Below are positions 15,541 to 64,000 of a stretch of DNA of 64,000 bases, piece by piece. Origin of the DNA: a virus. The stretch is from IMG/VR virus record IMGVR_UViG_3300020234_000021; one strand, written 5' to 3'. The notes below the pieces were generated by a model that saw only the letters and a program-made list of their open reading frames with translations, ran no database searches and was not told where the DNA came from. The translations under genes and the position numbers were made by a program. Every line of letters starts with the position of its first letter. Position 1 is the stretch's first letter.

Positions 15541-17178
15541 TCACCCGTAAATTGGTTTCGTTCGCTTGGGCATGAGGTTCAGCTCGTTGGGATCTTCCTC
15601 ATCGGTGAACTCAGTCTCCCAGCGTCGGCGCAGCCACAGCAGGGCCATGACCACCGTGTCGAATACATCATCGTGTTCGCCGCTGGGGAACTCCCCGCAC
15701 TGGCGGATCACATCACGTGACCACTGACGATCCACGTACCAGATACATCCCCGCTCCAGCACCAGGGCAGCGGCGTGCGCGCGCGCGTGCTTGGAATCGG
15801 TGACTTTGATCCGCGTCACGGGCAGATCCGCCCGACGCAGCTCCTGGGCCAGGGAATGTCCGGATGCTTTCTTCTCAATCAGGATCCGGTCTGGCTTCCA
15901 TTCTTCGTACGATTTCCTGGCCTCCTCGCGGAGGTCAGGGAACGACAGTCGTTCTTCCATCCGTTCCAGCATGATCGCGCACAGGCGCGGCTGGTTGTTG
16001 TAGCGCAGGTGCCAGGGCATGTCCTTGATGGACTCGACACCTTCGACCCACTCGAAGATACCCCAGGTGGTCCGGGCGCTGTAATCGGCTTCCTCGTCCT
16101 CCTCGAACGCGGTGTCGTAGACCTGGACCACCATCTCGCAGGACGGCATGTTGCCGGCGTCCTCCCACTTGCGCCAGTGCTTTGACTTCAAGATGTTGCC
16201 GCCCTCGGCGGAGGGGTTCTGCTGGATCTGCGACTCGAAGCCACGCTCGGTCAGTTCCTGCTGGAGACGCTTCATCTCCTTGGGTCCGAATCGAGCCGGC
16301 GTCAGCAGTTGATTCTCGCGCTCCCGCCAGTCCTCCCAGATCAGCTCATCTTCTTCGAGCGGCTGGGTGAAGCGCGCGATGTTGGCCGGCGGCTGGAGCT
16401 CCAGGTCGCGTGCCGGGCCGGTTTTCAGCGCATGGGTCTGGCACTTGGTTTTGGTGCGGTAGTAGCCCGGCATGTTCAGGTGAACCCAGCCCCCGGTGGC
16501 CAGGCAGTGCCCGGGCAGATCCACGTGGTGACCGCGCTGGGCAATGATGACCCGGCCGGCCTTTTTGGGGTTGTTGGCCCGGGTGGACATGGTGTTCCGC
16601 CACCAGTTGATCACCGATCCACGGATCAGATCGGATTCGATCTCGTTCATGTTATGGGCATCGTCGACCACGATCCTGTCGCCCCCTTCTCCGGTCGCCG
16701 TACCCTTCACGGCGGTCGCGAGCCGGTATCCGTTGGAGGTGTTGTCGAATCGTTTCTTCTGGTTCAGGTCACCCGAGAGGTGATACACGTGGCCCCATCG
16801 CTCCTGGTACCAGGGTGATTGGATCAGGCGGCGGCACTTGACCGAGTCGCGCAGGGTCAGGTCCAGGGCGTAGGTCGCGAACAGCCACTGGATGTGCGGC
16901 TGCCAGGTCCACTCCCAGGCCGGCCACATGACCGCGCAGATAGTCGACTTCGAGTGCCGTGGCGGTACGTTGATGATCAGGTCGTCGATGTCGCCCAGGG
17001 ACACAAACGTCAGGTGATCGCAGATCGCGTCGATGTGCTTGCCGTTGACGAACGGAGCTCCGGGCTCGACGATCGGCCAGGCGCCCTTGACGAACCGACG
17101 CATCTCGCGGCGCATGTTCTCGGCCGCGACCAGCGTGTAGGTCCGGTCGTATTCGACAGCCTGGGCCAGGTCACTCAT
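15541..17178 (-). CDS. terL: Terminase large subunit
   Basis: Walker A-like NVPPRHSKST, Walker B IVVDDAH, RNase H-like YDTAF..DYSA and FPSGEHDDVFD. Start placed at ATG 17178 (ATGA overlap with small upstream ORF). Confidence 0.92.
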   Translation of the reverse strand: MSDLAQAVEYDRTYTLVAAENMRREMRRFVKGAWPIVEPGAPFVNGKHIDAICDHLTFVSLGDIDDLIINVPPRHSKSTICAVMWPAWEWTWQPHIQWLFATYALDLTLRDSVKCRRLIQSPWYQERWGHVYHLSGDLNQKKRFDNTSNGYRLATAVKGTATGEGGDRIVVDDAHNMNEIESDLIRGSVINWWRNTMSTRANNPKKAGRVIIAQRGHHVDLPGHCLATGGWVHLNMPGYYRTKTKCQTHALKTGPARDLELQPPANIARFTQPLEEDELIWEDWRERENQLLTPARFGPKEMKRLQQELTERGFESQIQQNPSAEGGNILKSKHWRKWEDAGNMPSCEMVVQVYDTAFEEDEEADYSARTTWGIFEWVEGVESIKDMPWHLRYNNQPRLCAIMLERMEERLSFPDLREEARKSYEEWKPDRILIEKKASGHSLAQELRRADLPVTRIKVTDSKHARAHAAALVLERGCIWYVDRQWSRDVIRQCGEFPSGEHDDVFDTVVMALLWLRRRWETEFTDEEDPNELNLMPKRTKPIYG

Positions 17179-17279
17179 TGAGAGATCCAAGCCACGAGAT
17201 CAGGGATCGCGTACATCACCAGCAACACCACGCCGAGAAGAACAAGGATCCCTGGCCATTCATTTCGTTCACCCTTCAC
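17175..17279 (-). CDS. 34-aa single-pass membrane peptide
   Basis: Read by hand: MKGERNEWPGILVLLGVVLLVMYAIPDLVAWISQ. GTGA overlap upstream and ATGA overlap with terL. Confidence 0.5.
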   Translation of the reverse strand: MKGERNEWPGILVLLGVVLLVMYAIPDLVAWISQ

Positions 17280-21241: not shown

Positions 21242-23635
21242 CTAATCACTTGGATCGAATTTTGAGATTGAATCGATAGTCCAAGGGATTGTCTCCGCTA
21301 GACCTGTAGAAATGATGGTTCGGACGGCGACCCCTTCTTGAGGGAAGGCCAAATAGCGTGTTGCGTCGATTGTAATCGTGCGCCCGCGAGTCTGGTTCGA
21401 GTTGGTCGAGTCTGCGAGCCGTGAGCGAACGTAGTAAAACGGTCCCTGGCCATTGACCGTGGTGAGGGCCATTGAAGCGAGCCCGGTCTTTTGCGCGATC
21501 TGAAGGATCGTGCCGAAGTCGATGATCAGGTTGCCCAGGTTCTCGTATTGGATGTTGCCGGTGACGTTGTTCAGGCTAATCGTTACCCAGTTGGGCACGG
21601 GATTGGTAGTCCAGTACTCCCACTGCACCACGGAGCCCACGCCGTTGGCGTCGGTGATGTCGACCTTGACCCGGTTGAACCTCTCGGTGTGGCCGAAGTA
21701 GAAGGCATCGTCATCGGCTGGCGTGGCCGGGAAGATGTTGACGTCGTCGGCCGTGGGCTCGGAGGCCTCCAGGGTCTCGTCGGTGAAGACGCCGCCGTCA
21801 TCCGCAATAGCCGCGACCGCAACACCCTGGTTGCGCGCTTTGATCAGCACGTCCAGGTCGCCTTCGTAGTTGTGGCTGAATCCGGTCTGGCCGTTGACGT
21901 CGGCAAAGGACTCATCGAGCACGTCACCGTCAGTGACGCCGCCCACGCTCTCATTGGCGATGACACTCACGGGGGTGCCTTCCGTCACGCCGCTCAGGGT
22001 CACGCTGACCGTCTGGATCACTAAGACTGTGCCGGTGTAGCCGGCCGCACGCTCGTAGCTGAAGGTGCCCTCACCGTCGGTGACGTTGATCGTGACGTCC
22101 CCGTCCAGGGCATTGTCCACGATGAACACCGTGTTGCCGGTCGTGCCGTCAGAGGCGGTCTCGTAGCCCGACACCGAGTAGCCCGAGATGTTGAAGGTGG
22201 TCAGGCTGGCCGTGTTCAGGGCGATCTCGATCGCGTGCCCGCTTCCGTCCGAGGTGAACGAGAAGTTGTCCTGGTTCTCCTCGACCGAGCTCGCGGTCCA
22301 GAGGATCGCGCCCAGCGGATCGGTGGTGCCGTTGAAGATGCAACCATCCGCGTCCATCGACAGGAAAGTGATTTGGCCACAGTTGACGAAGATGACGTCG
22401 TTGACGAACTTCTGGCCGACGTCCTGGGCGGGAAAAACGAACGTACCGCAGTCAACGAACTGGCCGTTGGTCCACTGACCCTCATCGAGATCCGCACTCA
22501 TCGTCCAGTTGGCGACCGTGCCCACTGACTGGATGAAGAAGTTGTCGAAGTTGACCACGTTGGTGGATCCGGAGTCGCCCACGCAATCGATGTCCATCGA
22601 GCCGGCGGTGATCCCGGCGCCGGCATCGGGGATGTCCCCGTTCAGGTAGAGCTGGAAGTCCGAGTCCTCGAACCACGCATCAGAGTCGAGCGAGCCGATC
22701 TGGAGCCCGAACTGCAATTCAAACGCCTTGGATCCAGCGATCAGGATCCGTGCGATACCCCAGGCGTTGTTGCTGTCTTCGTCCTCGGTGACGATCTCCT
22801 GGAACGTGCCTCGATCACCTGTAGCGCCCCCTTCGATCAGCAGCGCCGGGTCGGCGTTGTCCACGTAGCGCAGCACGTCAAAACCGACGTTGTCTGCGTT
22901 ACCAGCCGCCTTGCCAGGGAAGTCTCCACCGTAGCCAAGGTCGACAATGATCTCTGGAGCGAGGTCAGCCAGGACACCCGTCAGCACCCGCGTATTGGAT
23001 GGCAGGTCTGCGAGGTTCAGCCGGAAACTCGACCAGCCCTGGAAGAAGAATCCGAAGTTGTCCTGGCCGCCTGTTGCAAAGGCTATGCGATTCGGGATCG
23101 CTGCAAACGTGAGCGTGAACGTAGCACCCGAACCCCCTCCACCCGAGACCGTATCTGGCGAGGAGGCATCAATCGAATAGCCGCCGCCATCGGTCAGCGT
23201 AGAGGTCAGAATCTCACCGCTTCCACCCACGGTATCCACCCGGATCGTTGCGGCCGTGTTGCCAGCAACCACCGTGCCCGTGGCGACAGTCAACACCTCC
23301 AGCGCGGCATACCCAGTCCCTGCCGCTGCGATAACTGCGGTCGCCACATCGCGCAGTGCGTCACCCAGCACCATCGAGAGACCCGCCGGGTCAGCCTCGA
23401 CCGATGGAGCGCCCGACTTCTGCCAGCCGAACACCGTGCGACCAATGTAATCCTCCGACGTGATCGTGTGGAACACCTCATAACTTTCTTCCGAGGCCTG
23501 ATCCTGCAACGCGATCCCACCTTCTCGGGCCGCAGCAGTCACCGTGTTCAAGCCGCCCATCGAAGACGTCCACCCGGTCGTTGCGTCACCCGCGTCGATC
23601 AGCACCAGGTTGGCAGCATCGATGGTGACACTCAC
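21242..23635 (-). CDS. Large acidic beta-rich protein, putative virion appendage/tailspike-like
   Basis: 797-aa ORF; the central N/D/F/C-patterned stretch suggests a beta-helix. Confidence 0.55.
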   Translation of the reverse strand: MSVTIDAANLVLIDAGDATTGWTSSMGGLNTVTAAAREGGIALQDQASEESYEVFHTITSEDYIGRTVFGWQKSGAPSVEADPAGLSMVLGDALRDVATAVIAAAGTGYAALEVLTVATGTVVAGNTAATIRVDTVGGSGEILTSTLTDGGGYSIDASSPDTVSGGGGSGATFTLTFAAIPNRIAFATGGQDNFGFFFQGWSSFRLNLADLPSNTRVLTGVLADLAPEIIVDLGYGGDFPGKAAGNADNVGFDVLRYVDNADPALLIEGGATGDRGTFQEIVTEDEDSNNAWGIARILIAGSKAFELQFGLQIGSLDSDAWFEDSDFQLYLNGDIPDAGAGITAGSMDIDCVGDSGSTNVVNFDNFFIQSVGTVANWTMSADLDEGQWTNGQFVDCGTFVFPAQDVGQKFVNDVIFVNCGQITFLSMDADGCIFNGTTDPLGAILWTASSVEENQDNFSFTSDGSGHAIEIALNTASLTTFNISGYSVSGYETASDGTTGNTVFIVDNALDGDVTINVTDGEGTFSYERAAGYTGTVLVIQTVSVTLSGVTEGTPVSVIANESVGGVTDGDVLDESFADVNGQTGFSHNYEGDLDVLIKARNQGVAVAAIADDGGVFTDETLEASEPTADDVNIFPATPADDDAFYFGHTERFNRVKVDITDANGVGSVVQWEYWTTNPVPNWVTISLNNVTGNIQYENLGNLIIDFGTILQIAQKTGLASMALTTVNGQGPFYYVRSRLADSTNSNQTRGRTITIDATRYLAFPQEGVAVRTIISTGLAETIPWTIDSISKFDPSD

Positions 23636-24706: not shown

Positions 24707-24999
24707 GTTACGGCCTCCGGGTCTTGGGCTTCTGGGGAACCGGCTTGATCGCCTGTGGTGAGCGCGTCGGGCGCCTGCCCTCCACCGCTCTCCTGAGTCG
24801 GTTGGACTGGATCGTCTGAGGTCGGGTCACTCGTTGTGCCCGTAGCAGGGTCCGTGACTTTTTCATCGTCGCTCACCTGGTTGACTCGAATGGGTTGACC
24901 CGTCGGGCACATCTTCCCGGCGAGCGCGGCACTGTCGGCGTCGACAACGATCGTGTCGCTGCCTCCGGCGATCGTGTATTCAACTGCGAACTTGCTCAT
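24703..24999 (-). CDS. Hypothetical acidic protein
   Basis: 98 aa, ATGA-coupled, low-complexity acidic tail. Confidence 0.5.
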   Translation of the reverse strand: MSKFAVEYTIAGGSDTIVVDADSAALAGKMCPTGQPIRVNQVSDDEKVTDPATGTTSDPTSDDPVQPTQESGGGQAPDALTTGDQAGSPEAQDPEAVT

Positions 25000-25769
25000 T
25001 CTGGTTGCCTCCCGGCTATGAGTTGCTCTGCGAGCAGATATCCTTCCAGCGGCCAGAGCTGCCGGAATGCGTTGTCGTAGGCGATACGCTCACCTACCTC
25101 GGCGTCGTAGTTGTCGGGGTGGACGCAGGCCGAGTGACCCACGACGTCGAATCCGTTGTTCATGGTGATCACGACGATCGTCGAGGTCGGCGGATGACTG
25201 ATCACCTGGACGCCCTCGATTCGAGCCTCGATCGACTCCATGGTCACCGTGGGCTGGGTCGGCTCCGGCCTGGATGGCACGCCCCTTTTGGCGACCCCTT
25301 CCTTGGCCTGGATGATCAGTTCCTCGATCAATCCCTCGACGTCATCGGCGTGCCCGGTGGACAACCCGGCCGCGATCACCGCTTCACACAACGCCTCCAA
25401 GTCAGGGATGATGATCTCCTTGCCCTGTTCCAGGATCGTGACCTTCTCACCCTCGGGGATGGTGAGTTTGATCTCCTCCGTGGGCTCGTCGGTCTCGGTT
25501 TGCAGTGCGTCCATACGTTTGATCTCATCGTTGAGTCGGGCGGATCGCTCGCTGCCGGTCTCGTTGACAGGCGGCTCGTCGGATTTCTCGGGCTCCGGTT
25601 CGAGCGATGAGAAGTCCAGCACACAGTGGCGCTGGGACGTCCCCTGGATCTCACTCGACGCTTGGGATCGCGTATGGCACCCCTCGGTGCAATCCACACC
25701 CGTGTGTGGGCAAAACGTGTCAACGGTCGACTCTGCGACGGTTGGTTCGGACATCTCAGCCTCCTTCAA
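24996..25769 (-). CDS. Gp49/Sf6 gp66-family domain protein with long N-terminal extension
   Basis: C-terminal VITMNNGFDVVGHSACVHPDNYDAEVGERIAYDNAFRQLWPLEGYLL is the Phage_gp49_66 signature. Confidence 0.7.
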   Translation of the reverse strand: MKEAEMSEPTVAESTVDTFCPHTGVDCTEGCHTRSQASSEIQGTSQRHCVLDFSSLEPEPEKSDEPPVNETGSERSARLNDEIKRMDALQTETDEPTEEIKLTIPEGEKVTILEQGKEIIIPDLEALCEAVIAAGLSTGHADDVEGLIEELIIQAKEGVAKRGVPSRPEPTQPTVTMESIEARIEGVQVISHPPTSTIVVITMNNGFDVVGHSACVHPDNYDAEVGERIAYDNAFRQLWPLEGYLLAEQLIAGRQPE

Positions 25770-31756: not shown

Positions 31757-32055
31757 GGCGCGAGAATCTCAGGGGCAGGCTGGCTGGGGTCTATCACTTG
31801 AGGGACCACGGCCCCATTGGGCAACAGGATCTGTGATTTCGACTCAGCCGCTTGTGACTCCCTGAGCTCATCGTTACCCATGCCGCGCAGTATCGTGACG
31901 AATTGAAACAGGCAGTACTGAGCCGGCGTGAGTGCCTCCACATTATCAGGCAGCACCTCACCCTCGGGCATGCCGAAATCGGCCGCGTGTTGGAAGTCGA
32001 CCATCCCCTCACCCTGGACATCGAGATCCTCAATCAGCAGGTAGCACTTCGCCAT
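31753..32055 (-). CDS. Hypothetical protein
   Basis: 100-aa ORF after terS. Confidence 0.5.
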   Translation of the reverse strand: MAKCYLLIEDLDVQGEGMVDFQHAADFGMPEGEVLPDNVEALTPAQYCLFQFVTILRGMGNDELRESQAAESKSQILLPNGAVVPQVIDPSQPAPEILAP

Positions 32056-32617
32056 CGACGGTTTCCTGTGGTGCGTTGATCATGGTCACATTGAGTGCGG
32101 CCTCGATGCGATCGAGTTGCTCCTGAGACATGGTGGCAAACGGATTCGCTTTCCGGTCGACCGCCTTGGTGTCCCCGAAGATCTCGAAGTGCTGGCCCAG
32201 TTGGTTGAGTGCTGACATTTTGTCGTGTAGCTGGTAGCTGTATTCCTGGACGACCTCGCCAGACGCCAGCGTGACATCGGTGATCTGGATCGTGCGCACG
32301 GCGGCGCGTTGCATCGAGGTGAGCTGGTCGGGTGATTTGTACACGTAGCGCCCGTCATCCTCCAGGCGCAAGAGGTCCAGGTGCTGCGTCATGCCGATCG
32401 CGCCGAGCTGGTTGACTACCTGCGCAGCGCCGAGCGCCACATGCTCGACCATTTCCCGGCCGAATGACGCGATGGTCTCGCGGATGTGTGGGCGTTCGAG
32501 CAGCAGGTAGGCGCGCGAGCTGGCATAGGCGTTCGAGTAGCCGGCCTCGCGTGCGGCCTGGGGCACTGATCGACAGACCGCGTATGCGGTGCAGAAGGCG
32601 AGCTCGCGTCGGTTCAT
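32030..32617 (-). CDS. terS: Terminase small subunit
   Basis: R.LAFC.AY......QAAR.AGYS...A......LL..P.I...I HTH, plus LHDKMSALNQLGQHF C-terminal motif typical of Terminase_2 proteins. Confidence 0.85.
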   Translation of the reverse strand: MNRRELAFCTAYAVCRSVPQAAREAGYSNAYASSRAYLLLERPHIRETIASFGREMVEHVALGAAQVVNQLGAIGMTQHLDLLRLEDDGRYVYKSPDQLTSMQRAAVRTIQITDVTLASGEVVQEYSYQLHDKMSALNQLGQHFEIFGDTKAVDRKANPFATMSQEQLDRIEAALNVTMINAPQETVDGEVLPAD

Positions 32618-37499: not shown

Positions 37500-37739
37500 T
37501 TACAGAGCCCCGTATTTCCACAATTTCGTGAATATCGGGTGCATGCCCAGTTTGGCCTGAACAATGCGATCGTGGCGCGCGAGTACCATTCGGATCGACG
37601 CGCTGGCGCGGCAACCTGCGCAGTAGTTCACCACCTGGCCGAGCTGGCCGACGAAGTCGTCGATCGATCGCCATTTGTAGCAATTCGGGCATTTCCTTTC
37701 CAGGCGGTTGAAGCTGATTCGATCCGGCGTTTCCTTCAT
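37500..37739 (-). CDS. Zn-finger protein
   Basis: ATGA-coupled start; CPNC...CAGC. Confidence 0.5.
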   Translation of the reverse strand: MKETPDRISFNRLERKCPNCYKWRSIDDFVGQLGQVVNYCAGCRASASIRMVLARHDRIVQAKLGMHPIFTKLWKYGAL

Positions 37740-38128
37740 ACCAACTTGACCTCGATCCCCGTCATCGCCTCGAACACCGCGCGCTTGAACCGCATCGGGT
37801 AGGTGTCCATGCCCTTGACGTCCTCGACCACCACGGTCGCCTCGCACCGCGTCGAGTCGAGCTCCACGTATCTGAAGTCATCGGTGTAGCTCGCCTGGCG
37901 GCCGTTGGGATAGCCCTTGCTGCGGATCAGGACGGGGCGCCCCTCGATTACCAACTTCGTTTTGGTGTGGACCTTCAGCTTGAAGATCTCGCCAGCGCGT
38001 TCCAGCAACTTGAGCTCGACATATCGAGCGTGCTCGCGCTTCGAGTCGAACTGGATCCCGTCCTGGCTGACCTTGGTGTTGTGGTACTTCGCGGCGTTCG
38101 GTCCAAACCGCATCACTGCCCTAACCAT
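37736..38128 (-). CDS. DUF1064-type PD-(D/E)xK nuclease (putative resolvase)
   Basis: KYHNTKV..DGIQFDSKRE..RY.ELK...GEI..L...Y..DF.Y...VEDVKG. Start may be 38113. Confidence 0.75.
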   Translation of the reverse strand: MVRAVMRFGPNAAKYHNTKVSQDGIQFDSKREHARYVELKLLERAGEIFKLKVHTKTKLVIEGRPVLIRSKGYPNGRQASYTDDFRYVELDSTRCEATVVVEDVKGMDTYPMRFKRAVFEAMTGIEVKLV

Positions 38129-38315
38129 GTGCTTCGAGGAGCTCGATTGCCTTGGCCATGCACGCGATCCGGTGGTCAGCGTCACGCTGGCTGATCTTGT
38201 CCCGCTCGATCCAGCGCGGGTACAACTGCTGGCGCATCTCCAGCTCGCGGCGCACCTCGTTGATGACCATGACCACGTCCACCTCGGGTGCGCCAAACAT
38301 GTCGGGTTCACTCAT
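38121..38315 (-). CDS. Hypothetical protein
   Basis: EVRRELEMR..LYPRWI...KI...A..RI motif; ATGA-coupled. Confidence 0.6.
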   Translation of the reverse strand: MSEPDMFGAPEVDVVMVINEVRRELEMRQQLYPRWIERDKISQRDADHRIACMAKAIELLEAHG

Positions 38316-49777: not shown

Positions 49778-50218
49778 ATGCCATCCATGCAACAACTGAC
49801 GATCATCGGCTACCTGGGTAAAGACCCAGAGATGCGATACGTTCGAGACGGTTCTGCCGTGGCCAACTTCAGTGTGGCCGTCACCGAGAACTGGAAGGAT
49901 CGCGGGACTGGCGAGCCCCGGGAGCACACCGAGTGGTTCGATTGCTCGGCATTCGGCCGCACTGGCGAGGTGGTGGGGGAGTTTCTGCACAAGGGCTCGT
50001 TGGTCCACCTGGTCGGCAAGCTGAAGACCCGCTCCTACGAGAAGGACGGGGTCAAGCGGTACGCCACCGACGTGCGCGTCGACAACATCCTGTTCCTCGA
50101 CAAGAAAGGCGACTCCAGCGCGCCCTACAAGAAACCCGACGCCCAGGAGCCGGCGAAGACCCCAGCCACGGCAGGTACGGTCGACGACGACGATCTGGAC
50201 GATGACATTCCATTCTAG
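49778..50218 (+). CDS. ssb: Single-stranded DNA-binding protein
   Basis: IIGYLGKDPEMRY...AVANFSVA..E.WKD..GE..E.TEW...KGSLV...GKL.TRSY; C-terminal DDDIPF. Confidence 0.95.
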   Translation: MPSMQQLTIIGYLGKDPEMRYVRDGSAVANFSVAVTENWKDRGTGEPREHTEWFDCSAFGRTGEVVGEFLHKGSLVHLVGKLKTRSYEKDGVKRYATDVRVDNILFLDKKGDSSAPYKKPDAQEPAKTPATAGTVDDDDLDDDIPF

Positions 50219-53232: not shown

Positions 53233-53577
53233 CTACTTGACCCCGTTGTGCTCGAAGCTGAAGTGGACCGCGTCCCTGCCCTTGAAGTCGCCGCCCCAGC
53301 GCGCCAGTTTGTGCATCGATTTCCACTTCTTTCCGACTGGTGCGTAGTCATCCGGATTCCAGGTGATCTTGCCGCTCATCATCCGGAACATGTCGGCGGC
53401 CAGCTTCTTGCGGTGGTTGGAATTTTTGATTCCCTTGCCCGTCTTGGCCATCAGCTCGGCCTGCTCTGGCGGGCGGAACACCTCGGCCAGGATCATCTCG
53501 TAGCCGTGCTGCTCGCACCACGCGAGGAGCCTCCCCAGGCACGCCGTGAATTCAACTTGCTTCTGATTCAGTGACAT
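53233..53577 (-). CDS. Endolysin, M15-family peptidase
   Basis: E..R.PEQA......G.GI.NS.H...LA.D...WGGDF...D..HFS Zn-peptidase motifs. Confidence 0.85.
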   Translation of the reverse strand: MSLNQKQVEFTACLGRLLAWCEQHGYEMILAEVFRPPEQAELMAKTGKGIKNSNHRKKLAADMFRMMSGKITWNPDDYAPVGKKWKSMHKLARWGGDFKGRDAVHFSFEHNGVK

Positions 53578-53578
53578 C

Positions 53579-56500
53579 TCATCTCCTAGCCAGGCCCATT
53601 ACTCGTTGATCAAGAATCTCTCGAACCATGTCTGCCGTGGCTGGGGCCCGGTCCTGGATCTCGGCTGGGAGATCCGCAGCGCCGAACTCAAGCAGCAGCT
53701 TCTGGTAGTCATCCTTTTTCGGCTGGCGCGGCCGGTTCTCTGCCCCACCTGGCCGGAACTGATAGCCCTCCTTGAATAGGGCATTCTTTTCCCGCTGCAT
53801 TTGGTTGATTTCTTCACGTTTTTTGGCCGGCGACATGTCCTTGTCGATCCAGGTCTCGCCCATCTCCTTGTTGAGCGCGCGGATTTGCTTCTGGATCCCG
53901 GCCACGTCCTCGAACACATCGACCACCTGGGCGAACTCGCTCTCGATCTCGTCGAAGCGCTCCTCGCGCTCCTCGCGTTCCATCTTGACCAGGGATCCCT
54001 TGACCCTGGTGATCTGGCGCAGCAGGTCGTAGTAGGGCTCCTGGTAGCCACTCGCCCGTGGCTGGTCGCCGTGATAGAAGGCCTGGATCACGGGGTAGTT
54101 CTCCAGCTCCCATTCCGGGCCCGGGGCGTACTTGTCCGAGTAGGCGCGCATGAGCTGGTCCGACGCCTGAAGCGCATAGCGACCCAGCGTGCCGGTGTAG
54201 CCTGCGTATAGGTTCTCCAGGTGGAGCGGGGATCCGACCTTCTCGCCCACGGCGCCCCTGGTCATCCACTCAGGGATGTTCTGAGCCAGCTCTCGCATGG
54301 TCGGGCTCGTGTAGTAGCGGTACTGATCGGCCGGCAGTGTGCCTTCCTCGAAGGCCCGGACGATGTCCGACGAGCGGAAGAAGTTCATGTTCATTCCCGA
54401 CTCAACGACCGGCCGCACAGCCTGGGGTATCGGGTTGAACGAAAACGTCTCCATGATCATGAACCACAGGCGCTTCAGGAGGATCTTGTTGGCGTCACCT
54501 TCCTGGGACATCATGCGCTCGGTGATGCGCTCGGGCAGCGTGCCAAAGAACGCGCCCACCTCGAACGGTTTCGGCAGCGCGTAGTGATCGTCACCTACCC
54601 ACCAGTGCCAGTAGAGATCCTTCTGCACGTCGGTGAGTTGCTGGTAGCGCTCGTCGTCCCGGTTCATCCCGTACAGGGCCAAGGTCGCGAGCATCAGCAT
54701 CGAGCCCTTGATCGCGAAGGCCATCGGGTTCTCACCCGCACCCCTGGCCAGGCGATGAATGCCCTGCATGCGCGCACCCATGAACGGCACCACCTGGATC
54801 AACCACTGGATCAATCCGTAGTCGCCGCCCATCGAGAAGTCCATCAGATCCTTGGCCTCGAAGGCCGCCTGCTTCTTCGATCGGCCGGCCTTGATCGCGG
54901 CGTTGTAGACCGCGACCCGGTTCGCGTTCTCGGCGGCGTTGGACAGTTTCTTGTAGGCCTCGAACAGCTTCCCTGGGGCATCGAGGATGAAAACGTCTTT
55001 GCCCATTTTCGCTTTCTTACGGACTCGTTCGCCGGCCGACGCGGCGTCGGTGAAGTTCACGTAGCCCTGGTCGAATGCGGCGCCGGCACTGAGCATGGAT
55101 CGATAGGTCTCGTTCTCACGCATCACCTCACCGAACCCCTTCATGGCGCTGGTGATCGGCTCGTAGTGATCCCTGGAGATCACGAACGAGGACAGCAGGT
55201 CTCGCTCGAAGTTGCGGATGATGAAGTCCGGCGCCAGGGTGATTGTCTGGGTGAAGAACCGTTTGAATCCCCGCATGAAGCGCGTGATCTTCCCGAATGC
55301 CCTCATGTTGATGTTGGAGATGGCTCGGAACAGCAGCTTGTCGTCGGTCTCGTACCACTCCCGCTGGCCGTCGCGCAATATGCTGAAGACGTTGTCGCCC
55401 TCGGGGCGCCCAATGGAAGTCATTTTGCGCAGACCCTTGGTCACCTTGGGGTCGATGGTGTCCGGATCGATTCCGGCTTCGCGCATTATTTTCTTGAGCT
55501 CGCTCCCGGGAACCATCGCCTTGCTGATTTTGTACTTCGCTTTGCGCACCAGGCCGGTGCCTTTCAGAGCGTCGACTGTTTCCATCGCTGCCTTGTTCTT
55601 CAGCGAGGCATCGACCAGGTGGGTCATGTTGGCAACGATGTTGTCGAACACGTTGCCGATCCCCATCTCGCCGCCTTTGAGGTACTTCACGCCGCTTTTC
55701 TGGTCGACGACGCCACGACCTCCCGCCTTGATCGGCCCCACGACTCGATCGTCCTGGATCCGCCAGAACGGCACGTAGTCAGCGTGCTCCCAGAATGGCC
55801 GCGTCTCCGGATCGATCACGCCCGCTTCCTGGGCGTAGTCGAGCACGGCTTTGTGGAACTCAGCGTACTCGCGCGCCACCTCCCGGAACTCGGGATTGCG
55901 GAATCCCAGGTTGACTGCCGCGTTGATCATCTCCGGTGTGAAGTTCTTTTCGCGCCCAGCCTGGATCACCATGTCCCTGACGAATCCGCCGTCCGGGCCC
56001 TCCTCCAACATCAGTGTGAACGCAGCTTCCTTGGTCTGCGGTCGTCCCCTGCCGGCCAGTTCGTTGTTAATCACGTCGGAGTTGTCGTCATAGCCCTCCA
56101 TCAGCAAGCGCTTCGCGCGCGTGCCGGCCATGTACTTGTTCCAGTCGTCGATCTTCCCTCTGATCGGATCCATGATCTCCAGGAAGCCCTTGCCACCCGT
56201 GGTTGTAACGCCATCTTTCCAGGCCGGCGGCCCGTACTTCATGATCGAGTGCATCACGGTGTCCAGGCCCGTGGAGAACCGCGCGGTCATGTAGGCGCCG
56301 ATGTCCTCGCCGGCATCGGTGAGCGCGTTCTTCAGGCCGGAGAATCGATCGAATATGCCCTGGTCGAGCTCGCGCCGCGTCACGGCCATGGCGCTGGCAA
56401 TGAGTTGCCTGATGCCAGTCGGACCCACCTTCGAGCCGATCCGCTTGCCCATTTCTTCGAGCGCCCGGGCCTCCTCCGGATTCATATCGGGTGGCCGGTC

Positions 56501-59500
56501 CTCGGACATGTAGGTCTCGTTTGGACCGACCAGGCCGGCGCCGACCCAGGAAAGCGACTCCGTCTCGCTGACCTGGATCCCGTCAATCACTCTCAGCCCG
56601 ATCGCGTTACCGAACGCAATCATGTTGGCCATCGCCTTGCGGCCGGCATCGCCCATCGGAGCGATCGGAACCATGGCATTCGCGTTGCCTCGGTGCGAGC
56701 CTATGAGGAGGCGGGTCTTGCCTGACTGTTCTTGCCCCAGTCGCAGCGAGATCTGCTCGCCCGCCGTCAGCGGGATCCAGGCGACGACGTGGTTGCGCGT
56801 GTCGAGCAACATGACCCCGTAGTCTTTGGTCTCTGAGCGCCGCCACTGGTCGATGACTCGCTGCGAGCTGCTCATCACGTCTCGCTCGGAGAGGTCACGG
56901 TAGGTGATGATCCGCTCCTGGACCTCGATCGTTTGCTTGTTCTTGCGCTCTTTGCCGACCGGGCGCGACCGGGTGACATATCCTTCCGGGTCGATCTCGG
57001 AGAACACGTTGGGGTCGTCGTTCCCGATGACGATGTGCGGCAGCGGCTCGACGTGGGTGTCCAAGAACATCCCGTCGCCAAAGTACAGGGCGAAACTCAC
57101 GGTCAGGTTGATGTCGGCTGAGCTGGGCTCGTCGGATCCTGACGGGTGGTTGTGGCCCATGTAGAACTTCGCGGCCCCTGGGACTGACAGGATCGCGCCA
57201 GCCAGGATGTGCGGCTCGATCGCGGCGGCGTCAGTACGGCCCATTTGGTGCCTGAGTAGGGCCAGCGGCTTGTCGTTGACGTCGAGCACCAGGGCGACCA
57301 GGTTCTCCTGGGCGAACTTCAGGAGCTCGCGCATCACCAGGGCCGCGTCCCGCGTCGATCGAACCGCTTTCCCGATCGGCACCTTGATCTTCTGGGTGGT
57401 GACGTTGTCCACGTGCATCGAGTAGATGTCGCGCAGATCCTGGGCCATGACCTCGAACGTCTCTTTGGTCAGCTCAACCCGCACATCACCGTCCTCGATC
57501 GCCTTGGCGGCGTCGTGGAGCGCTCCGACGATGTCAGCGTCCGTAAACGTCAGATCGAAGCCCAGGCTTCGCAGGAGCTTGCGTACGGCCGTGATGGCCC
57601 GTTTCACGAGCGGTAGGGTCGGGTTGCGTTCAGCGAGCACAGCGAGGATCTCAGCGGCTTCTCGCTGGGGCGAAAGGGGCTTCCTGCCGGGCACGTTGTA
57701 CCGGGCCTGAACCGCCGCTCGCACGGTCGCAATGATCGAGTCGCTGGTGTTGCCGATGATATCCGCGATGATCTGGTCGAAGTCGCCGCGCCGCATCATC
57801 ATGGCGTGGCCCACAGCCTCGTGCATCAGCACTGACCGGACCTTGGCGTCATCGAACATCCGGTCAGCCACCAGATAGATCTGGTCGCCCACGATCATGC
57901 CGGACGTGAAGGTGCGATCCTGAGCCTGCTGACCCCTGGCCACGGGGAGATCTGTGCCTGACTGGACCACGGTCACATTCGGCGCGTCGTCGGCCCAGTT
58001 CTCCGTCAGCTCACTGACCAGGGCCTCCACATCTTCAACTGTCTGGCCAGGTGAATCCCGGCCCTCGATGATGTCGAGCTCCTTGCTGGAGAACCCAAGG
58101 ATCCGGATCGAGGCGTCGTCGTAGATGACGAAGTTCTCGGCTTGGGTGCCATGGCCGAGATATCGGTGGCCCTGGATGTCAAAGGACGACAGCAGCAGCG
58201 AGGCCAGCATGTCGGTTTCCCAGCGGGGATTCAGCCCGCCAAATTGCTGCGCACGCGCCTCGATCTCATCGAATTTTGCCTGCACTGCCGGGAGCGCTTC
58301 CCCGATGTATTGATAGTCGATCGACCGCTTGATGACGCTGTAGAGCTCGCGGCCGGTGTACACCGCAAGGTCCGGTACCTCGTTGGTCTCGTCGCCCAGC
58401 CAGTCTTCGAGATCGCTCCGGAAGTCGGCCGGGATCTTCGCCAGGATCTCGGGCTGGTTCTCCAGCGGAATGTCCCAATTCATGATCTGGTCGGGGCTCA
58501 GGTCGAAGCCGACCTCGTAGAGCCGACCCGGAGACTCCGTTGTCGTGTTGTCGTTGATCACCAGCATCTGAGTCAGATCGACAATCGCCTGGTCGATCGC
58601 CTCCAGGCGTGTCTGGCCGCCCAGAATCCGGTCAGACGTCGGGAGCATCTCTATCTGGGTGGCTTGATCGCCTTCGGCTCGGCGCTTGTGACCCTGCTGG
58701 GTGTTCAGCAGGTTCCTGATACGGGTTCCGACATCGATCCGGACGCCACGAGCCGACTCGACGATAACCGCGTACCAGGCGACGGCCGTCTCGCTGGCCT
58801 CGATCCCCTGGTCTTTCAGGGCAGCTTGCAGAGTGTCCAGATTCGTCTGGCGTTGATCGAAGGTCGCGTCGGATCCAATGTCGATGGAAACATCACCGAC
58901 CTGGATGCGCGCGCCAGGCTGACTGGTCTGGTGGCGGTAATGCCCGCCGATGCCTTTGGAGGTGGTCGCGTAGTAGCCCCAGCCGTACGCGATGTTGCCC
59001 TCGCCAGATCCTACGGCGGCAATATCAACGGCGGAGTAGATTGAACCGGAGCCGTGCCAGCCCCGTAGTCCGGGGTCGTCTAGGCTTTCAAGCGCAGTTC
59101 GTCGGGCAGCTCCGCTTCTTCCTCGGGCCCCAGTTCCGCCTGCTCGTCGCCCCACCCCAGAGCGAGGTAGTTCTCCCTGGTAACTGGTAGTCCCTGTTGC
59201 TTCAAGGCCTCCAAGATCGGATCGCCCTGGGTCTCCTGACGCGGCAAGGATCATCTCCCGTGCTTTATCGGCCTCGATAGTACCATTTTCGTAACGCTTC
59301 CAGATGCCGTCAGCTCGACGCTGGGCCTGGGGATGCTTGTTGGCAAACATGGCCCGAGACGCCTCCCAGACGATGCTCTGGAGCTCCCTGGGCTGGAGTC
59401 CAAGTTCGCGCGCCGCCTGGCGGTAGCCCTCCGCATACAGCCAATACGCTCCCTTGAGTCCCGTGGGACCACTGTCAGCCGATCCCTTGGCGTCCCCGAA

Positions 59501-62500
59501 GTTCTGCTGCACCTCGATGTTGGCCTGCCCCAGGGGCCGCAGGAGCGCCGCTGCGACGGCGTGCGTGTCGATCGTGACGTCCTGGCCAGCGCCGTTCGGG
59601 TTGATGATGTTGTTGTAGAACGAGCGCACCTTCTGGGCCTTGCCCACGACCGCGCTGATCGTGTCGACTCTCGGGTCATCCAGGATCTGCAACGCCTTGG
59701 CGATCGACTTGAATGACTTCCAGCGCATCGTCCCCATGGCCAGGCCGTCCGGCTCAGCGATACTCAGCGACGGCGCAAAGTTGCCTTCTGGCGTGGGCAT
59801 GAAGAACCCGGGGTTGTGGTAGGCCTCGGAGTAAGACCGGACCCACATCGCCTGCTCGAACGGTGCCAGTTCTTTCAGTGGCAAGGTCTTGAGTCGCTCC
59901 AGGTGCCATCCCTGCTGCTGCGTCGGCAGGTTCTGATCGAGCATGCCCTGAACGGCGGTATCCGCCACCGTGTCCTGCTGGGTCGTCCAGATCGACAGGA
60001 TCCGCTCGGCCATGGCGACATTGTTGCCCCAGTCGTTCTGAGGGCTGACCGCCGCGAGCACAGCCGCCGCTGTCGTCTCGCTCACGCCGTACTGGCGGGC
60101 GAAGCGCTTGGCGATCCGGTTCGCGCCTTCGTACCACTTCTGGCTGCGGTCTCGGATCTCCGCCGGCACCTGGTTGTAGAGCCACGTCAGGTTGCCCGCC
60201 ACGTGATCGATGAAGTTCTGGGCGCCTTCCTCGGGGGTGGCGTTGCGCTCAGAGCGGATCCCCAGGTACCTGTTCACCACCTTGACGTTCTTGGCCATGG
60301 CCCGCATGTCTGTGCGAGCCGCATCGATGCCGACATTCAGGAACCTGGCCACGGCTGATATCGGGCCTTTCAGCGGAGTCCAGGGCAGGCGCGCGGATAT
60401 CTGTCGTGCGTCCGGCCGGCGGAACCGATCCACCGACTCCAATGGCCCTTCATCTGCTTCAATGAAGGAGATCATTTTGGCGCGCCATTTGATCAGACTG
60501 TCCCGCCACTCCTCCAGGGAGCGACCCGGCTTGTAGATGTTGGGATGACCTGGCTTGAAGCGCCGCATGCTGCCCTGGCGGATCGACGTTTTCATGTCGC
60601 GCAGGTCGTCCCGTTCTGCCTTGGTGGCAGTGGTCGGGTCGTCCAGCGCTTCAAGGTTCAGCGCATCGATCGACCGGACCTGGTCGTAGAGCCGCCGCAG
60701 GAACAGCGCATTCTCTGGCTTGGTTCCGCGCGGCCCACCGATCGCCAGCACCAGCGCTCCAAGTTCCTTGGCGTTCATCGAGTCTGCGATCTCGGGCTCG
60801 CTCATGGCCACGAGATCCGGATACTTGCGTGACACCTCAAGTCCCATCGGTACCTTGTCAGCAGGCTCCTCGCCCAGCGCCTTGGCCTTCTCGTAACCCT
60901 CCCGATACAGCAGCACGAACGACCTGGGGTCGTACCCCTCGGGCGCCTCGGGCGTCATCGGCAGGTCCGACTGAGCATCCAACATGCCCAGGGTGATCGC
61001 CTGGAAGTCGAGCTCGGCCTGCTCATCGTCGACCGAGACCTCCTTCAACTCCTCTTTGCGCCTGGCCAGGAACTCATCCTCGGTTTCCGGGATCCCCTCG
61101 GTCGGCGTGAACTCGCGCAGGATCTGCGCTTCCTCGGTGGTGATCGCTCCCGCGTTGCGGTACGCAACGATCGCAGCGGTCATGCTGTTGACGCCCTCCG
61201 CCCTCTGCTTTTTGATGTCCGTCTCGACGGCTGCCAGGGCTGTTTCATCGAGCTCAATGTCCCGGCCCACTCGGTTCTCGATTTCTTCCTGGAACACCTC
61301 TACCGCGATGGCCCCGTATTCCAGTGGTGCCGCGTCAGAGTCGAAGCGCAACGTGCTCCATTCTTCCGGTGAGATCTGGTAGTAATCCGCGAGCACATCG
61401 GCCGGGCGCAGCCCCCTGCTCAGGTCCACCTGCATCTCAGCGAGACCAGATTCGCCTAGCTCTTTGCGGAACTGCTCCAGGAAGCGCCCGCCCTGTTCCT
61501 CCGGCGCATCGGCCGACTCATCGATCAGCTCGTCGCGCAGCCGCATGACCTCGCGCATCTGCGTGGTGATCTCCAAACCGCCAGTACGCTTGGTCTGGAG
61601 ATAGAGCGGCAACGCGCCTTTCGGGCGTTTGATCTTGATCGCTTTCCAGGTGGTCGCCCAACTCAGCACCTTGGCCAGGTTCTGGTGTGTGTTCTCGGGT
61701 GAATTTTCGGCGGCGCTGCCTTTGCGGGTGGCTTTGTGCCATTCCCAGAGCTGTTCTTTGGAGATCGCGCCCGAGTCGACTGCCTCGTAGATCTCGACCT
61801 CGGTGTCGAACTGGTTGAGCACGTCGCTTGCTTCTCGGGCCGTGATGGCCCGATCGACTCGGCGCTGGACATCATCGTTGGCCGACGCGCGCAATCCGGA
61901 TTTGCGCAGTACCTCCTGGAGCTGGTTCATCGACAGACCTTCTAAGGCGGCCTGCATCCGGGCCTTGGTCTCCTGGAACACATCGGTCAGCTCTCCGGTT
62001 TTGGCGCCTTCAGGTCGTCCGGCGTCATCCCCTTCTTCCTGAGCGCTTGGGCCAGTATCAGCGCCTTCCTCAGTTGCGCCTTCGGCAGGCTCGGTAATTT
62101 CAACTGCTGCGGCATCTATAGCCTCCTCGATTTCCTCGACCGCCACGCCCTCGGTGAGCGCGTCGTGAATTGTTTTGACTGCTCCGAATGCCTTGTCGGC
62201 TGCCTCATCGGAAGTGAGGTTCGGGTCGTCTGCTATCCCACCCTGCAAGTCAACAAAGGCGTTCGGCGTATCGTCGAGCGCCTGCTGGCCATACGCATCT
62301 TCGGTCTTGGTCCTGGTGATCTCGTCCATGACGTCTTTGATGAACGTCGCTTCCCGGGATCCCAGGTGCTCGCCGGCCAGCGCTCGTTCGATCGCCTTCT
62401 GTCCCGCGCGCGGCGTCAGTCGACCAGACTCATCGCCAAACCACTCCGGCGTGATCGAAGCAAAGTCGACTGAGGGCGCGTACTGGTCCTCGCCACGGAT

Positions 62501-64000
62501 CTGTGCCTCGATCTTGTTCAACAGGTCGTTGACAGTCGCGTCCTCGGGGAGGTAGCCCTCCTCGACCAGTTCCTCGCGCAGGCTGTCGATGCTCCCGTGT
62601 TTTGCATTTTCTGCCGGGAACACCCGCGAAGTACCCTCACGCTTCTGGACCTTCATATCCGCGACGTCGAATCCCTCGGTCTCCGCGACCTCTCGGCTCA
62701 GGCCGCCGAGTTTGGCCATCGCCTGGAACAAGGTGTCCGACTGCGGGTTGACCTTCTTCGAGTCGGCCGGTGCCACCGTCGATAGCTCCTTGGCCTTGCC
62801 CTCCAGGTTGGCCCGCATTTCCGCGTCCTGGATCCTCTCGTCGCCTTCGAGCTCCGGCGAGATCCCTGGCTCCAGCACCTCGGGCATGACCTTGGCCGGC
62901 GGCTCCCAGGCACGCCAACCCCCACCCTCCTCGGTGGGCACCATGCTGCGAGCGCTGGGCGGCGCTATCTCCGCGCTACCTGATCGCAACCCGATGTCAA
63001 CGCGCTCGCGCTTCCGGTCCTGCATGGCGGCGTCGGCAGAATCTATGTTCCGCCCGTAGTCCCAGGTGATCGTCGGATTCATGGTGGTCTCGCCGTCCGA
63101 GATCTCGGTCGTTTCGAGCTCGGCGGCCACCTCCTGGAGCGCGGTTTCGATTTCTTCCCGTTCGTAGCCGGTAACGAAGAACTCGTCACCAGACTTGTGG
63201 TACGCGCTGATGTCTTTGTCTGCCAGGGCCAGGCCTACCGCATCGAGGAGCTCATCGCCGCGCGGGCTGCCCATCTGCTTGTTGACCCAGCCCAGGGAGT
63301 CCACGTCGATCGCCACGATGATGGGCGGATCCTCGGATTTGATGTCCTCCTGGAGTGCGCGCCAGTTCGCCAGGCCGCCCTTGCCACTCTGGTAGATCTC
63401 CTGCTGGCGCTCCTCGGGTGTCATCGCCTCGACTCGGGCCCGGCGCTTGGCATCGCGGCGCCGATCGACGCCCGTCCAGTCGCCCGCCTTCACCTCCGAG
63501 AGTCGCTTCTGGATGTCCCCCAGCGCCCTCCGGCCCTTCGGCAGCATCGCCGCTCGACCCACGTCATTGACCCTGACATAGCCCAGCTCGACCAGCGCTT
63601 CCTGCATGTCCGGTTTCAGCGGGTCGCCGGCCTGTAGCGCCTCCAACTCCTCCACAACCATGCTCATCGTGGTGTGGTCGTCGCCCCACTCGTCTGCCAG
63701 GCTGGGCCCCTCATCGGGCGCATCTGTCTCTGGCGAGGACTCACCCTCAATCGACTGCAAGATCCGTTGGTTTTCGCGCTCCCGCCAGGCCTTCATCTCC
63801 TCGGGTGTGCCACCTGGTGTGTCAACGTCGTCGGACGGTGGTGGCGGTGGCGGATCGGTGGGATCGATCGGGTTCTCCGGATCCACCGCAGGTCTGCCTT
63901 TGCGATCCTCGACGTCGGCCTTGGGTGGCATGACCGGCTTGTCCGGCTGCATCGCATCAACGGCCGCAGGCACCCCCCGCAGCGTCATGCCGATCGTTGC
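53579..64000 (-). CDS. Giant polyvalent (probable injected virion) protein, >3,470 aa, open at window edge
   Basis: The frame stays open from 63988 to 64000. Motifs: SGDEF (63179-63193), HhH-like TIDTH/LQSIVW, ART-like WHGS...GEG..AYGWGYY, HEAVGH (57806-57823), RadC HNHPSG..PS..D (57140-57154), degenerate second RadC, LPD38-like PKPFEVG.FF...PER. Confidence 0.85.
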   Translation of the reverse strand, partial: ATIGMTLRGVPAAVDAMQPDKPVMPPKADVEDRKGRPAVDPENPIDPTDPPPPPPSDDVDTPGGTPEEMKAWRERENQRILQSIEGESSPETDAPDEGPSLADEWGDDHTTMSMVVEELEALQAGDPLKPDMQEALVELGYVRVNDVGRAAMLPKGRRALGDIQKRLSEVKAGDWTGVDRRRDAKRRARVEAMTPEERQQEIYQSGKGGLANWRALQEDIKSEDPPIIVAIDVDSLGWVNKQMGSPRGDELLDAVGLALADKDISAYHKSGDEFFVTGYEREEIETALQEVAAELETTEISDGETTMNPTITWDYGRNIDSADAAMQDRKRERVDIGLRSGSAEIAPPSARSMVPTEEGGGWRAWEPPAKVMPEVLEPGISPELEGDERIQDAEMRANLEGKAKELSTVAPADSKKVNPQSDTLFQAMAKLGGLSREVAETEGFDVADMKVQKREGTSRVFPAENAKHGSIDSLREELVEEGYLPEDATVNDLLNKIEAQIRGEDQYAPSVDFASITPEWFGDESGRLTPRAGQKAIERALAGEHLGSREATFIKDVMDEITRTKTEDAYGQQALDDTPNAFVDLQGGIADDPNLTSDEAADKAFGAVKTIHDALTEGVAVEEIEEAIDAAAVEITEPAEGATEEGADTGPSAQEEGDDAGRPEGAKTGELTDVFQETKARMQAALEGLSMNQLQEVLRKSGLRASANDDVQRRVDRAITAREASDVLNQFDTEVEIYEAVDSGAISKEQLWEWHKATRKGSAAENSPENTHQNLAKVLSWATTWKAIKIKRPKGALPLYLQTKRTGGLEITTQMREVMRLRDELIDESADAPEEQGGRFLEQFRKELGESGLAEMQVDLSRGLRPADVLADYYQISPEEWSTLRFDSDAAPLEYGAIAVEVFQEEIENRVGRDIELDETALAAVETDIKKQRAEGVNSMTAAIVAYRNAGAITTEEAQILREFTPTEGIPETEDEFLARRKEELKEVSVDDEQAELDFQAITLGMLDAQSDLPMTPEAPEGYDPRSFVLLYREGYEKAKALGEEPADKVPMGLEVSRKYPDLVAMSEPEIADSMNAKELGALVLAIGGPRGTKPENALFLRRLYDQVRSIDALNLEALDDPTTATKAERDDLRDMKTSIRQGSMRRFKPGHPNIYKPGRSLEEWRDSLIKWRAKMISFIEADEGPLESVDRFRRPDARQISARLPWTPLKGPISAVARFLNVGIDAARTDMRAMAKNVKVVNRYLGIRSERNATPEEGAQNFIDHVAGNLTWLYNQVPAEIRDRSQKWYEGANRIAKRFARQYGVSETTAAAVLAAVSPQNDWGNNVAMAERILSIWTTQQDTVADTAVQGMLDQNLPTQQQGWHLERLKTLPLKELAPFEQAMWVRSYSEAYHNPGFFMPTPEGNFAPSLSIAEPDGLAMGTMRWKSFKSIAKALQILDDPRVDTISAVVGKAQKVRSFYNNIINPNGAGQDVTIDTHAVAAALLRPLGQANIEVQQNFGDAKGSADSGPTGLKGAYWLYAEGYRQAARELGLQPRELQSIVWEASRAMFANKHPQAQRRADGIWKRYENGTIEADKAREMILAASGDPGRSDLGGLEATGTTSYQGELPRSGVGRRAGGTGARGRSGAARRTALESLDDPGLRGWHGSGSIYSAVDIAAVGSGEGNIAYGWGYYATTSKGIGGHYRHQTSQPGARIQVGDVSIDIGSDATFDQRQTNLDTLQAALKDQGIEASETAVAWYAVIVESARGVRIDVGTRIRNLLNTQQGHKRRAEGDQATQIEMLPTSDRILGGQTRLEAIDQAIVDLTQMLVINDNTTTESPGRLYEVGFDLSPDQIMNWDIPLENQPEILAKIPADFRSDLEDWLGDETNEVPDLAVYTGRELYSVIKRSIDYQYIGEALPAVQAKFDEIEARAQQFGGLNPRWETDMLASLLLSSFDIQGHRYLGHGTQAENFVIYDDASIRILGFSSKELDIIEGRDSPGQTVEDVEALVSELTENWADDAPNVTVVQSGTDLPVARGQQAQDRTFTSGMIVGDQIYLVADRMFDDAKVRSVLMHEAVGHAMMMRRGDFDQIIADIIGNTSDSIIATVRAAVQARYNVPGRKPLSPQREAAEILAVLAERNPTLPLVKRAITAVRKLLRSLGFDLTFTDADIVGALHDAAKAIEDGDVRVELTKETFEVMAQDLRDIYSMHVDNVTTQKIKVPIGKAVRSTRDAALVMRELLKFAQENLVALVLDVNDKPLALLRHQMGRTDAAAIEPHILAGAILSVPGAAKFYMGHNHPSGSDEPSSADINLTVSFALYFGDGMFLDTHVEPLPHIVIGNDDPNVFSEIDPEGYVTRSRPVGKERKNKQTIEVQERIITYRDLSERDVMSSSQRVIDQWRRSETKDYGVMLLDTRNHVVAWIPLTAGEQISLRLGQEQSGKTRLLIGSHRGNANAMVPIAPMGDAGRKAMANMIAFGNAIGLRVIDGIQVSETESLSWVGAGLVGPNETYMSEDRPPDMNPEEARALEEMGKRIGSKVGPTGIRQLIASAMAVTRRELDQGIFDRFSGLKNALTDAGEDIGAYMTARFSTGLDTVMHSIMKYGPPAWKDGVTTTGGKGFLEIMDPIRGKIDDWNKYMAGTRAKRLLMEGYDDNSDVINNELAGRGRPQTKEAAFTLMLEEGPDGGFVRDMVIQAGREKNFTPEMINAAVNLGFRNPEFREVAREYAEFHKAVLDYAQEAGVIDPETRPFWEHADYVPFWRIQDDRVVGPIKAGGRGVVDQKSGVKYLKGGEMGIGNVFDNIVANMTHLVDASLKNKAAMETVDALKGTGLVRKAKYKISKAMVPGSELKKIMREAGIDPDTIDPKVTKGLRKMTSIGRPEGDNVFSILRDGQREWYETDDKLLFRAISNINMRAFGKITRFMRGFKRFFTQTITLAPDFIIRNFERDLLSSFVISRDHYEPITSAMKGFGEVMRENETYRSMLSAGAAFDQGYVNFTDAASAGERVRKKAKMGKDVFILDAPGKLFEAYKKLSNAAENANRVAVYNAAIKAGRSKKQAAFEAKDLMDFSMGGDYGLIQWLIQVVPFMGARMQGIHRLARGAGENPMAFAIKGSMLMLATLALYGMNRDDERYQQLTDVQKDLYWHWWVGDDHYALPKPFEVGAFFGTLPERITERMMSQEGDANKILLKRLWFMIMETFSFNPIPQAVRPVVESGMNMNFFRSSDIVRAFEEGTLPADQYRYYTSPTMRELAQNIPEWMTRGAVGEKVGSPLHLENLYAGYTGTLGRYALQASDQLMRAYSDKYAPGPEWELENYPVIQAFYHGDQPRASGYQEPYYDLLRQITRVKGSLVKMEREEREERFDEIESEFAQVVDVFEDVAGIQKQIRALNKEMGETWIDKDMSPAKKREEINQMQREKNALFKEGYQFRPGGAENRPRQPKKDDYQKLLLEFGAADLPAEIQDRAPATADMVREILDQRVMGLARR

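Follow-up and report, generated by a model that had tools for sequence, protein, structure and literature searches.

A compact, divergent GGDEF domain within a giant phage polyvalent protein

The viral DNA analysed here (IMG/VR record IMGVR_UViG_3300020234_000021; 64,000 nucleotides, hereafter the window) carries on its reverse strand a giant gene at 53579..64000 (-), identified from the list of open reading frames (ORFs), the full-length protein in the database and Pfam matches as one encoding a phage polyvalent protein. Counted from the earliest ATG inside the window, the gene encodes 3,469 amino acids, and its frame stays open up to the last position of the window; the complete protein in the database has 3,945 residues, the first 476 of which fall outside the window. 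Within it is a GGDEF (diguanylate-cyclase-type) domain, the subject of this report, whose core at 62984..63391 (-) corresponds to residues 200-335 of the window ORF and 676-811 of the full protein, as located by translation, Pfam, a family profile compared with the PDB, AlphaFold2 modeling, Foldseek and VIA-align. An earlier sequence-only reading had proposed a GGDEF-family cyclase domain inside an ejection-type protein at this place, and the peptide and motif positions that it quoted are exact in the translation of 62984-63391 (-). Its placement of the SGDEF signature at residues 266-270 holds for the window ORF, but that ORF runs off the window and the signature occupies residues 742-746 of the 3,945-residue protein.

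In window ORF numbering, which is used below, the landmarks of the domain are GLANWRAL (205-212), IDVD (227-230), Asn-236, Gly-Asp (244-245), SGDEF (266-270; 63179..63193 (-)) and ADAAMQDRKRER (318-329). The D-V-D stretch (228-230; 63299..63307 (-)) contains Asp-228, which alignment with DosC identified as the metal-binding aspartate (Asp-327 in PleD). Asp-228 is invariant in the family, as are Asp-268 and Glu-269 of the signature. The full stretch aligned across the subfamily is longer, spanning 62954..63436 (-) or residues 185-345 in alignments of 150 and 111 relatives and of the stand-alone phage proteins YuA gp44 and LK3 ORF70. It includes an N-terminal helix with a conserved M-[ST]-P-E-E motif and, after the last helix, a C-terminal tail with the family consensus G-x-R-A-x-R-G-E-x-P-P, which is modeled with high confidence. 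The tail (62954-62983 (-), residues 336-345) is absent from canonical cyclases and present in YuA gp44; in the window copy it has diverged (R338S and G339A).

Among 1.84 billion representative proteins searched, 862 matched at E<=0.001 and 252 clusters did so at E<=1e-10. The relatives compared here are the best 150 listed, all with E below 1e-12, and 111 relatives were aligned for a profile. All 111 matched Pfam GGDEF (PF00990), the best at 1.8e-18. The window copy itself scored 23.9 bits on a 161-residue piece, a borderline pass of the gathering threshold of 23.8, and 23.3 bits on a 181-residue piece. Compared with the PDB, the 111-relative profile matched GGDEF diguanylate cyclases only, with a best E of 4e-16. 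An AlphaFold2 model of the domain, built with the same alignment, reached a predicted local distance difference test score (pLDDT) of 96.4 and adopts the palm-like GGDEF fold. Foldseek aligned this model at a probability of 1.00 with GGDEF cyclase domains such as DgcZ, PleD, WspR and DosC, all of the matches listed being GGDEF. VIA-align likewise listed only GGDEF matches, including 3ign (Z 16.2, root-mean-square deviation 2.0 A over 135 residues) and PleD (2v0n, Z 14.4), the latter being the structural comparison that the sequence-only reading had proposed. The second-best structural match in BFVD is a homologue from Bordetella phage CN1. Because the relatives, the profile comparison, the AlphaFold2 model, Foldseek and VIA-align all agree, the segment is a genuine GGDEF domain, compact and divergent, and the family assignment made from the letters stands. 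A minimal CRISPR-polymerase or other palm domain was also considered and rejected, the listed profile and fold matches all being GGDEF cyclase domains.

In PleD, the metal, guanine and phosphate contacts are made by Asp-327, Glu-370, Glu-371, Asn-335, Asp-344, Lys-442 and Arg-446, of which Asn-335 and Asp-344 read the guanine, and Lys-332 (the 'FK' lysine) touches phosphate through its main chain (PMC7288161). Alignment placed Asp-228, Asn-236, Asp-245, Asp-268, Glu-269, Lys-326 and Arg-329 of the window copy opposite PleD Asp-327, Asn-335, Asp-344, Glu-370, Glu-371, Lys-442 and Arg-446, in that order. Judged by this alignment, the window copy has lost none of the side chains through which PleD binds metal, guanine or phosphate. 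The metal-binding residues Asp-228, Asp-268 and Glu-269 are those that never vary in the family; the guanine-binding pair Asn-236 and Asp-245 is present, Asp-245 being found in about 89% of the family; and the phosphate-binding Lys-326 and Arg-329 are conserved in 98% and 90%, respectively. The spacing of Arg-329 differs by one residue from the canonical one, and Lys-326 and Arg-329 are assigned by alignment only. At positions 228, 230, 233, 236, 237, 241, 244, 245, 264, 266-270, 319, 326 and 329 the family consensus is D-D-K-N-D-H-G-D-H-S-G-D-E-F-D-K-R and the window copy reads D-D-G-N-K-S-G-D-H-S-G-D-E-F-D-K-R. The three substitutions in this series are K233G, D237K and H241S. Gly-233 stands at the position of PleD Lys-332, a main-chain contact, and positions 237 and 241 are not among the listed substrate contacts; of the remaining 149 relatives in the list, about 20 likewise carry Gly, Ala, Ser or Arg in place of Lys at position 233, with the other residues kept. 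The alignment thus reproduced the residues named in the sequence-only reading, both the kept ones (the Asp of DVD, the Asn, the GD pair and the DEF core) and the three changed ones, as well as the missing RxxD motif.

The signature reads SGDEF in place of the canonical GG(D/E)EF. Serine at the first glycine is the family majority (112/150), and since the SGDEF enzymes ECA3270 and MbaA have been reported active (PMC3974145, PMC8079147), this signature rules out neither membership nor activity. K-D-I-S occupies the place of the RxxD inhibitory site (I-site), and no arginine is found there across the family, which argues against a receptor for cyclic di-GMP (c-di-GMP) and for an enzyme without product inhibition. 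A binding-only role as an I-site receptor was rejected because the family lacks RxxD.

The N-terminal part of the giant protein gave no Pfam match. Beyond the GGDEF domain, DUF7178 was matched in two stretches at 59354..60208 (-) (residues 1261-1545; Pfam E 2.8e-27, with segment scans), followed by a HEAVGH motif at 57806..57823 (-) (residues 2056-2061), a candidate zincin-type metallopeptidase site recognised from the motif alone at a place with no Pfam match. A RadC-like JAB domain lies at 57086..57355 (-) (residues 2212-2301; Pfam RadC E 6e-14 on the segment; HNHPSG at 57137-57154), and LPD38 lies at 54086..54655 (-) (residues 3112-3301; Pfam E 2.8e-39), inside a shared C-terminal module of about 900 residues. 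The RadC-like JAB domain and LPD38 thus co-occur in one phage-type polyvalent protein. By tblastn, the C-terminal ~900 residues match giant proteins of phages PTXU04 and phiARM81mr and of Vibrio phages, with E 4e-105 to PTXU04_00025. The protein is very large, joins the unrelated enzymatic domains GGDEF, DUF7178 and RadC/JAB, and contains LPD38; on this domain content the carrier is a phage polyvalent protein of the kind described by Iyer et al. (2017), in which GGDEF is one cargo module.

LPD38 is listed as confined to phage-type polyvalent proteins (Iyer et al. 2017, PMC5512222). Virion proteomics found the LPD38 giant phi24B gp47 in abundance, and it has been proposed to be an ejection protein; PTXU04_00025, the LPD38 protein of Escherichia phage PTXU04, is required for efficient infection. 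Both resemble the window protein in the C-terminal module of about 900 residues and differ from it in that no GGDEF domain has been reported in either. By analogy with these proteins, the giant protein is most likely packed in the capsid and ejected together with the DNA.

The compact subfamily to which the domain belongs is spread over giant phage proteins, which number in the hundreds, and stand-alone early genes such as YuA gp44. The median length of the proteins carrying the best 150 relatives is 2,087 amino acids. A common C-terminal module was found in 36 of these 150 and the inter-domain stretches are not shared, a combination that corresponds to the shuffled-cargo pattern of polyvalent proteins. 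Seven of the 150 contain two GGDEF copies per chain (P0004, P0006 and P0007, of 478-544 residues, and the giants P0009, P0011, P0016 and P0029); such tandem copies could supply what dimeric catalysis needs, and the window protein has a single copy.

YuA gp44 (from a Pseudomonas phage) and LK3 ORF70 (from a Bordetella phage) are stand-alone proteins of 156 residues and members of the same compact subfamily (29-36% identity). Features common to them and the window domain are the N-terminal M-T-x-x-E helix, a short first helix, an [SA]GDEF signature, the lack of an I-site and a C-terminal G-x-R-A-A-R-G-x-x-P tail. In contrast to the window domain, they are encoded by free-standing early genes beside anti-restriction genes rather than within a virion giant, and they retain Lys, Asp and His at the three positions changed in the window copy. 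A 2023 review counts the short YuA GGDEF protein among a small number of phage-borne c-di-GMP elements. Lysogens of LK3 overproduce biofilm, an observation on whole lysogens rather than on the GGDEF gene itself. Compared with the bacterial diguanylate cyclases PleD, WspR, DgcZ, DgcR and DosC, the window domain is alike in fold (Z 14-16) and in the residues that bind metal, guanine and phosphate, whereas it lacks a sensor or receiver domain and the RxxD I-site, has Ser for the first Gly of the signature and carries the extra conserved C-terminal tail; the helix leading into its first strand falls about 11 residues short of the DgcR counterpart.

Taken as a whole, the explanation that we favour, by a modest balance of probability, is that the domain is an I-site-less GGDEF cargo of an ejected polyvalent protein and makes c-di-GMP in the host. 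The giant protein would be packed in the capsid and would enter the host with the DNA. Two domain copies, each with GTP and Mg2+, would then meet and condense two GTP molecules to c-di-GMP, and the enzyme, having no RxxD inhibitory site, would be unregulated. The resulting rise in c-di-GMP would shift the newly infected cell toward a high-c-di-GMP state, with less motility and fewer pili, and a plausible benefit would be a block to adsorption of competing phages. In Pseudomonas, high c-di-GMP induces PlzR, type IV pili are lost and pilus-dependent phages including YuA are blocked (PMC11461919); this pilus loss is a precedent for a possible benefit and not evidence for the window phage. The sequence-only reading had suggested an injected enzyme that makes or binds a cyclic dinucleotide. 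The first half of that idea gains from the fold, the contact residues and the polyvalent carrier, all of which fit a synthase, but the binding-only half is unlikely in a domain with no I-site.

Several findings weigh against the favoured explanation. The window copy departs from its family at 6 of the 29 columns conserved in at least 85% of relatives (T204G, K233G, D237K, G310D, R338S and G339A), where the family median is 1, and H241S comes in addition to these six. In a homologue survey of the kind proposed by the sequence-only reading, the acidic residues Asp-228, Asp-268 and Glu-269 are invariant and position 233 varies in some relatives; position 237 is Asp in 98% of relatives and D237K recurs in only 2 of the other 149. 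The Pfam score of the copy is barely at threshold. The nearest domain is 46% identical, leaving no relative close enough for a test of purifying selection, and a scan of IMG/VR turned up nothing more than 39% identical. The evidence for packaging comes from homologues of the C-terminal module only, and an ejected, probably unfolded chain would have to form the required dimer. A literature search for a biochemically assayed phage GGDEF enzyme, or for any assayed member of the phage subfamily, found none; the one match to 'phage-encoded diguanylate cyclase' was a YfiN-interacting peptide, which is not a cyclase.

The first set of these observations also speaks for the strongest rival explanation, in which the domain keeps the GGDEF fold but is catalytically dead or crippled, its role in the giant protein being that of a structural spacer or of a module that binds GTP. 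Besides the excess of departures from conserved columns, the rarity of D237K and the threshold Pfam score, it can draw on G310D, which falls in the conserved S-x-G-x-G strand, and on degenerate GGDEF domains that have taken other roles, such as GTP sensing or the ATPase of YybT (PMC7288161, PMC3974145). The intact metal, base and phosphate contact residues speak against it, however, as does the very confident structural model. We also compared the identity of the GGDEF domain with that of the C-terminal module. For the window protein against the 16 relatives closest to it in that module, the ratio of the former identity to the latter was 0.82, and among those 16 relatives it was 0.80 overall and 0.91 for pairs of comparable divergence. 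This crude rate test gave no sign that the domain decays at an accelerated pace relative to the C-terminal module. We regard a dead or crippled copy as unlikely, though as the most serious contender. Because the substrate contacts are kept yet 6 of 29 conserved positions are changed, catalytic activity of the window copy is likely but not assured, with a chance that we put at little over one half from the residues present.

A second rival explanation holds that the domain is active but makes another product (cyclic GMP-AMP, cyclic di-AMP or linear pppGpG), or drains GTP, to act against host nucleotide-based immunity. A single substitution switches the product in Hypr GGDEF enzymes (PMC7288161), Iyer et al. 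(2017) suggested interference with host nucleotide signalling (PMC5512222), and the stand-alone relatives in YuA and LK3 lie beside anti-restriction genes. On the other hand, the guanine-reading Asn-236 and Asp-245 are both kept, the position of Asp-245 being Ser in Hypr enzymes, and the sequence bears no sign of adenine use. An alternative product is thus distinctly improbable, and the proposal in the sequence-only reading that the domain interferes with nucleotide-based immunity gained no specific support.

The giant protein might instead be active without being ejected, made late and acting in the already infected cell, for instance on lysis timing or host aggregation. A 114-residue ORF directly downstream of the giant gene (53233-53577 (-)) has a weak, below-threshold match to Peptidase_M15_4 (E 2e-4). 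By this resemblance it probably encodes an endolysin, and an M15-type peptidase just downstream fits a late gene position for the giant gene. The location of the giant gene directly upstream of this probable lysis gene on the same strand would suggest late expression, but virion components need late expression too, and LPD38 giants have been found in virions, the module being confined to phage-type polyvalent proteins (Iyer et al. 2017). We give this late-acting alternative little credence. A chance resemblance with no GGDEF domain at all, for which only the whole-protein single-sequence Pfam score of 15.2 bits might be cited, is refuted by the profile match to solved cyclases (E 4e-16), the pLDDT of 96.4, the Foldseek matches, the Z of 16.2 and the 150 listed relatives below 1e-12, and we consider its probability negligible.

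The idea of a GGDEF domain in an entering phage protein, as raised in the sequence-only reading, is not new: GGDEF in phage polyvalent proteins was catalogued computationally in 2017 (Iyer et al., PMC5512222). That study defined the concept, named GGDEF as a nucleotide-signalling cargo of phage-type polyvalent proteins and offered as rationale that enzymes of invaders interfere with host signalling or act against rivals (PMC5512222). The polyvalent proteins described there, such as Acetonema longum WP_004096050.1, resemble the window protein in the fusion of GGDEF to unrelated enzymatic domains and LPD modules, in the predicted co-delivery with DNA and in the rationale of a cyclic nucleotide made on entry. 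The partners differ, being SWI2/SNF2, methylase and ART domains in the Acetonema example and DUF7178, RadC/JAB and LPD38 here. Iyer et al. (2017) described GGDEF as 'not very widespread' among polyvalent proteins; our search of representative proteins, by comparison, gave 252 clusters at E<=1e-10. Relative to these GGDEF polyvalent proteins the window copy is a divergent member, and what is particular to it is the divergent surround of its active site. The variant with Gly-233, Lys-237 and Ser-241 could represent a lineage with altered kinetics or an altered product. Such natural variation at three positions that are normally conserved could be informative once a consensus member has been characterised.

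The compact, I-site-less SGDEF subfamily with its own tail may consist of dedicated phage effectors that raise host c-di-GMP from the time of DNA entry, before phage gene expression, a proposal that we hold tentatively and rate at somewhat under an even chance. If it is true, these would be the first virion-delivered second-messenger synthases. YIP peptides of Pseudomonas phages (cited in PMC11461919) are likewise a phage means of raising host c-di-GMP; they are small activators of the host cyclase YfiN, whereas the window phage would itself supply the cyclase. If the window domain is active and ejected, the phage could reset a signal central to bacterial lifestyle only seconds into infection and with no need for transcription, which would affect motility, surface receptors and biofilm formation as well as the exclusion of rival phages. 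Reviews still call phage c-di-GMP enzymes rare; our search puts the sequence clusters of this subfamily at no fewer than 150 and as many as about 250.

The rest of the window is that of a phage, with genes for a large terminase, portal, major capsid protein, primase and helicase (PHROGs), a small terminase and a single-stranded DNA-binding protein (SSB). A blastn search with the GGDEF region against phage records gave no match. Pfam scans of about 40 other window ORFs, small ORFs excluded, together with PHROGs, found no PilZ, EAL, HD-GYP or other c-di-GMP-related family. Two ORFs of 869 and 797 residues upstream of the terminase region, at 18620-21229 (-) and 21242-23635 (-), had no PHROG match. 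The closest terminases, 42-43% identical, come from Roseobacter phages CRP-901 and CRP-902. The gene for the small terminase, at 32030-32617 (-) (Pfam Terminase_2, 2.4e-18), and that for the large terminase, at 15541-17190 (-), share a strand and are separated by about 15 kb containing many ORFs without annotation. Other assigned genes are a member of the N4 gp49/Sf6 gp66 family at 24996-25769 (-) (1.9e-21), a DUF1064 gene at 37736-38311 (-) (1.8e-14) and the SSB gene at 49778-50218 (+) (3.6e-30).

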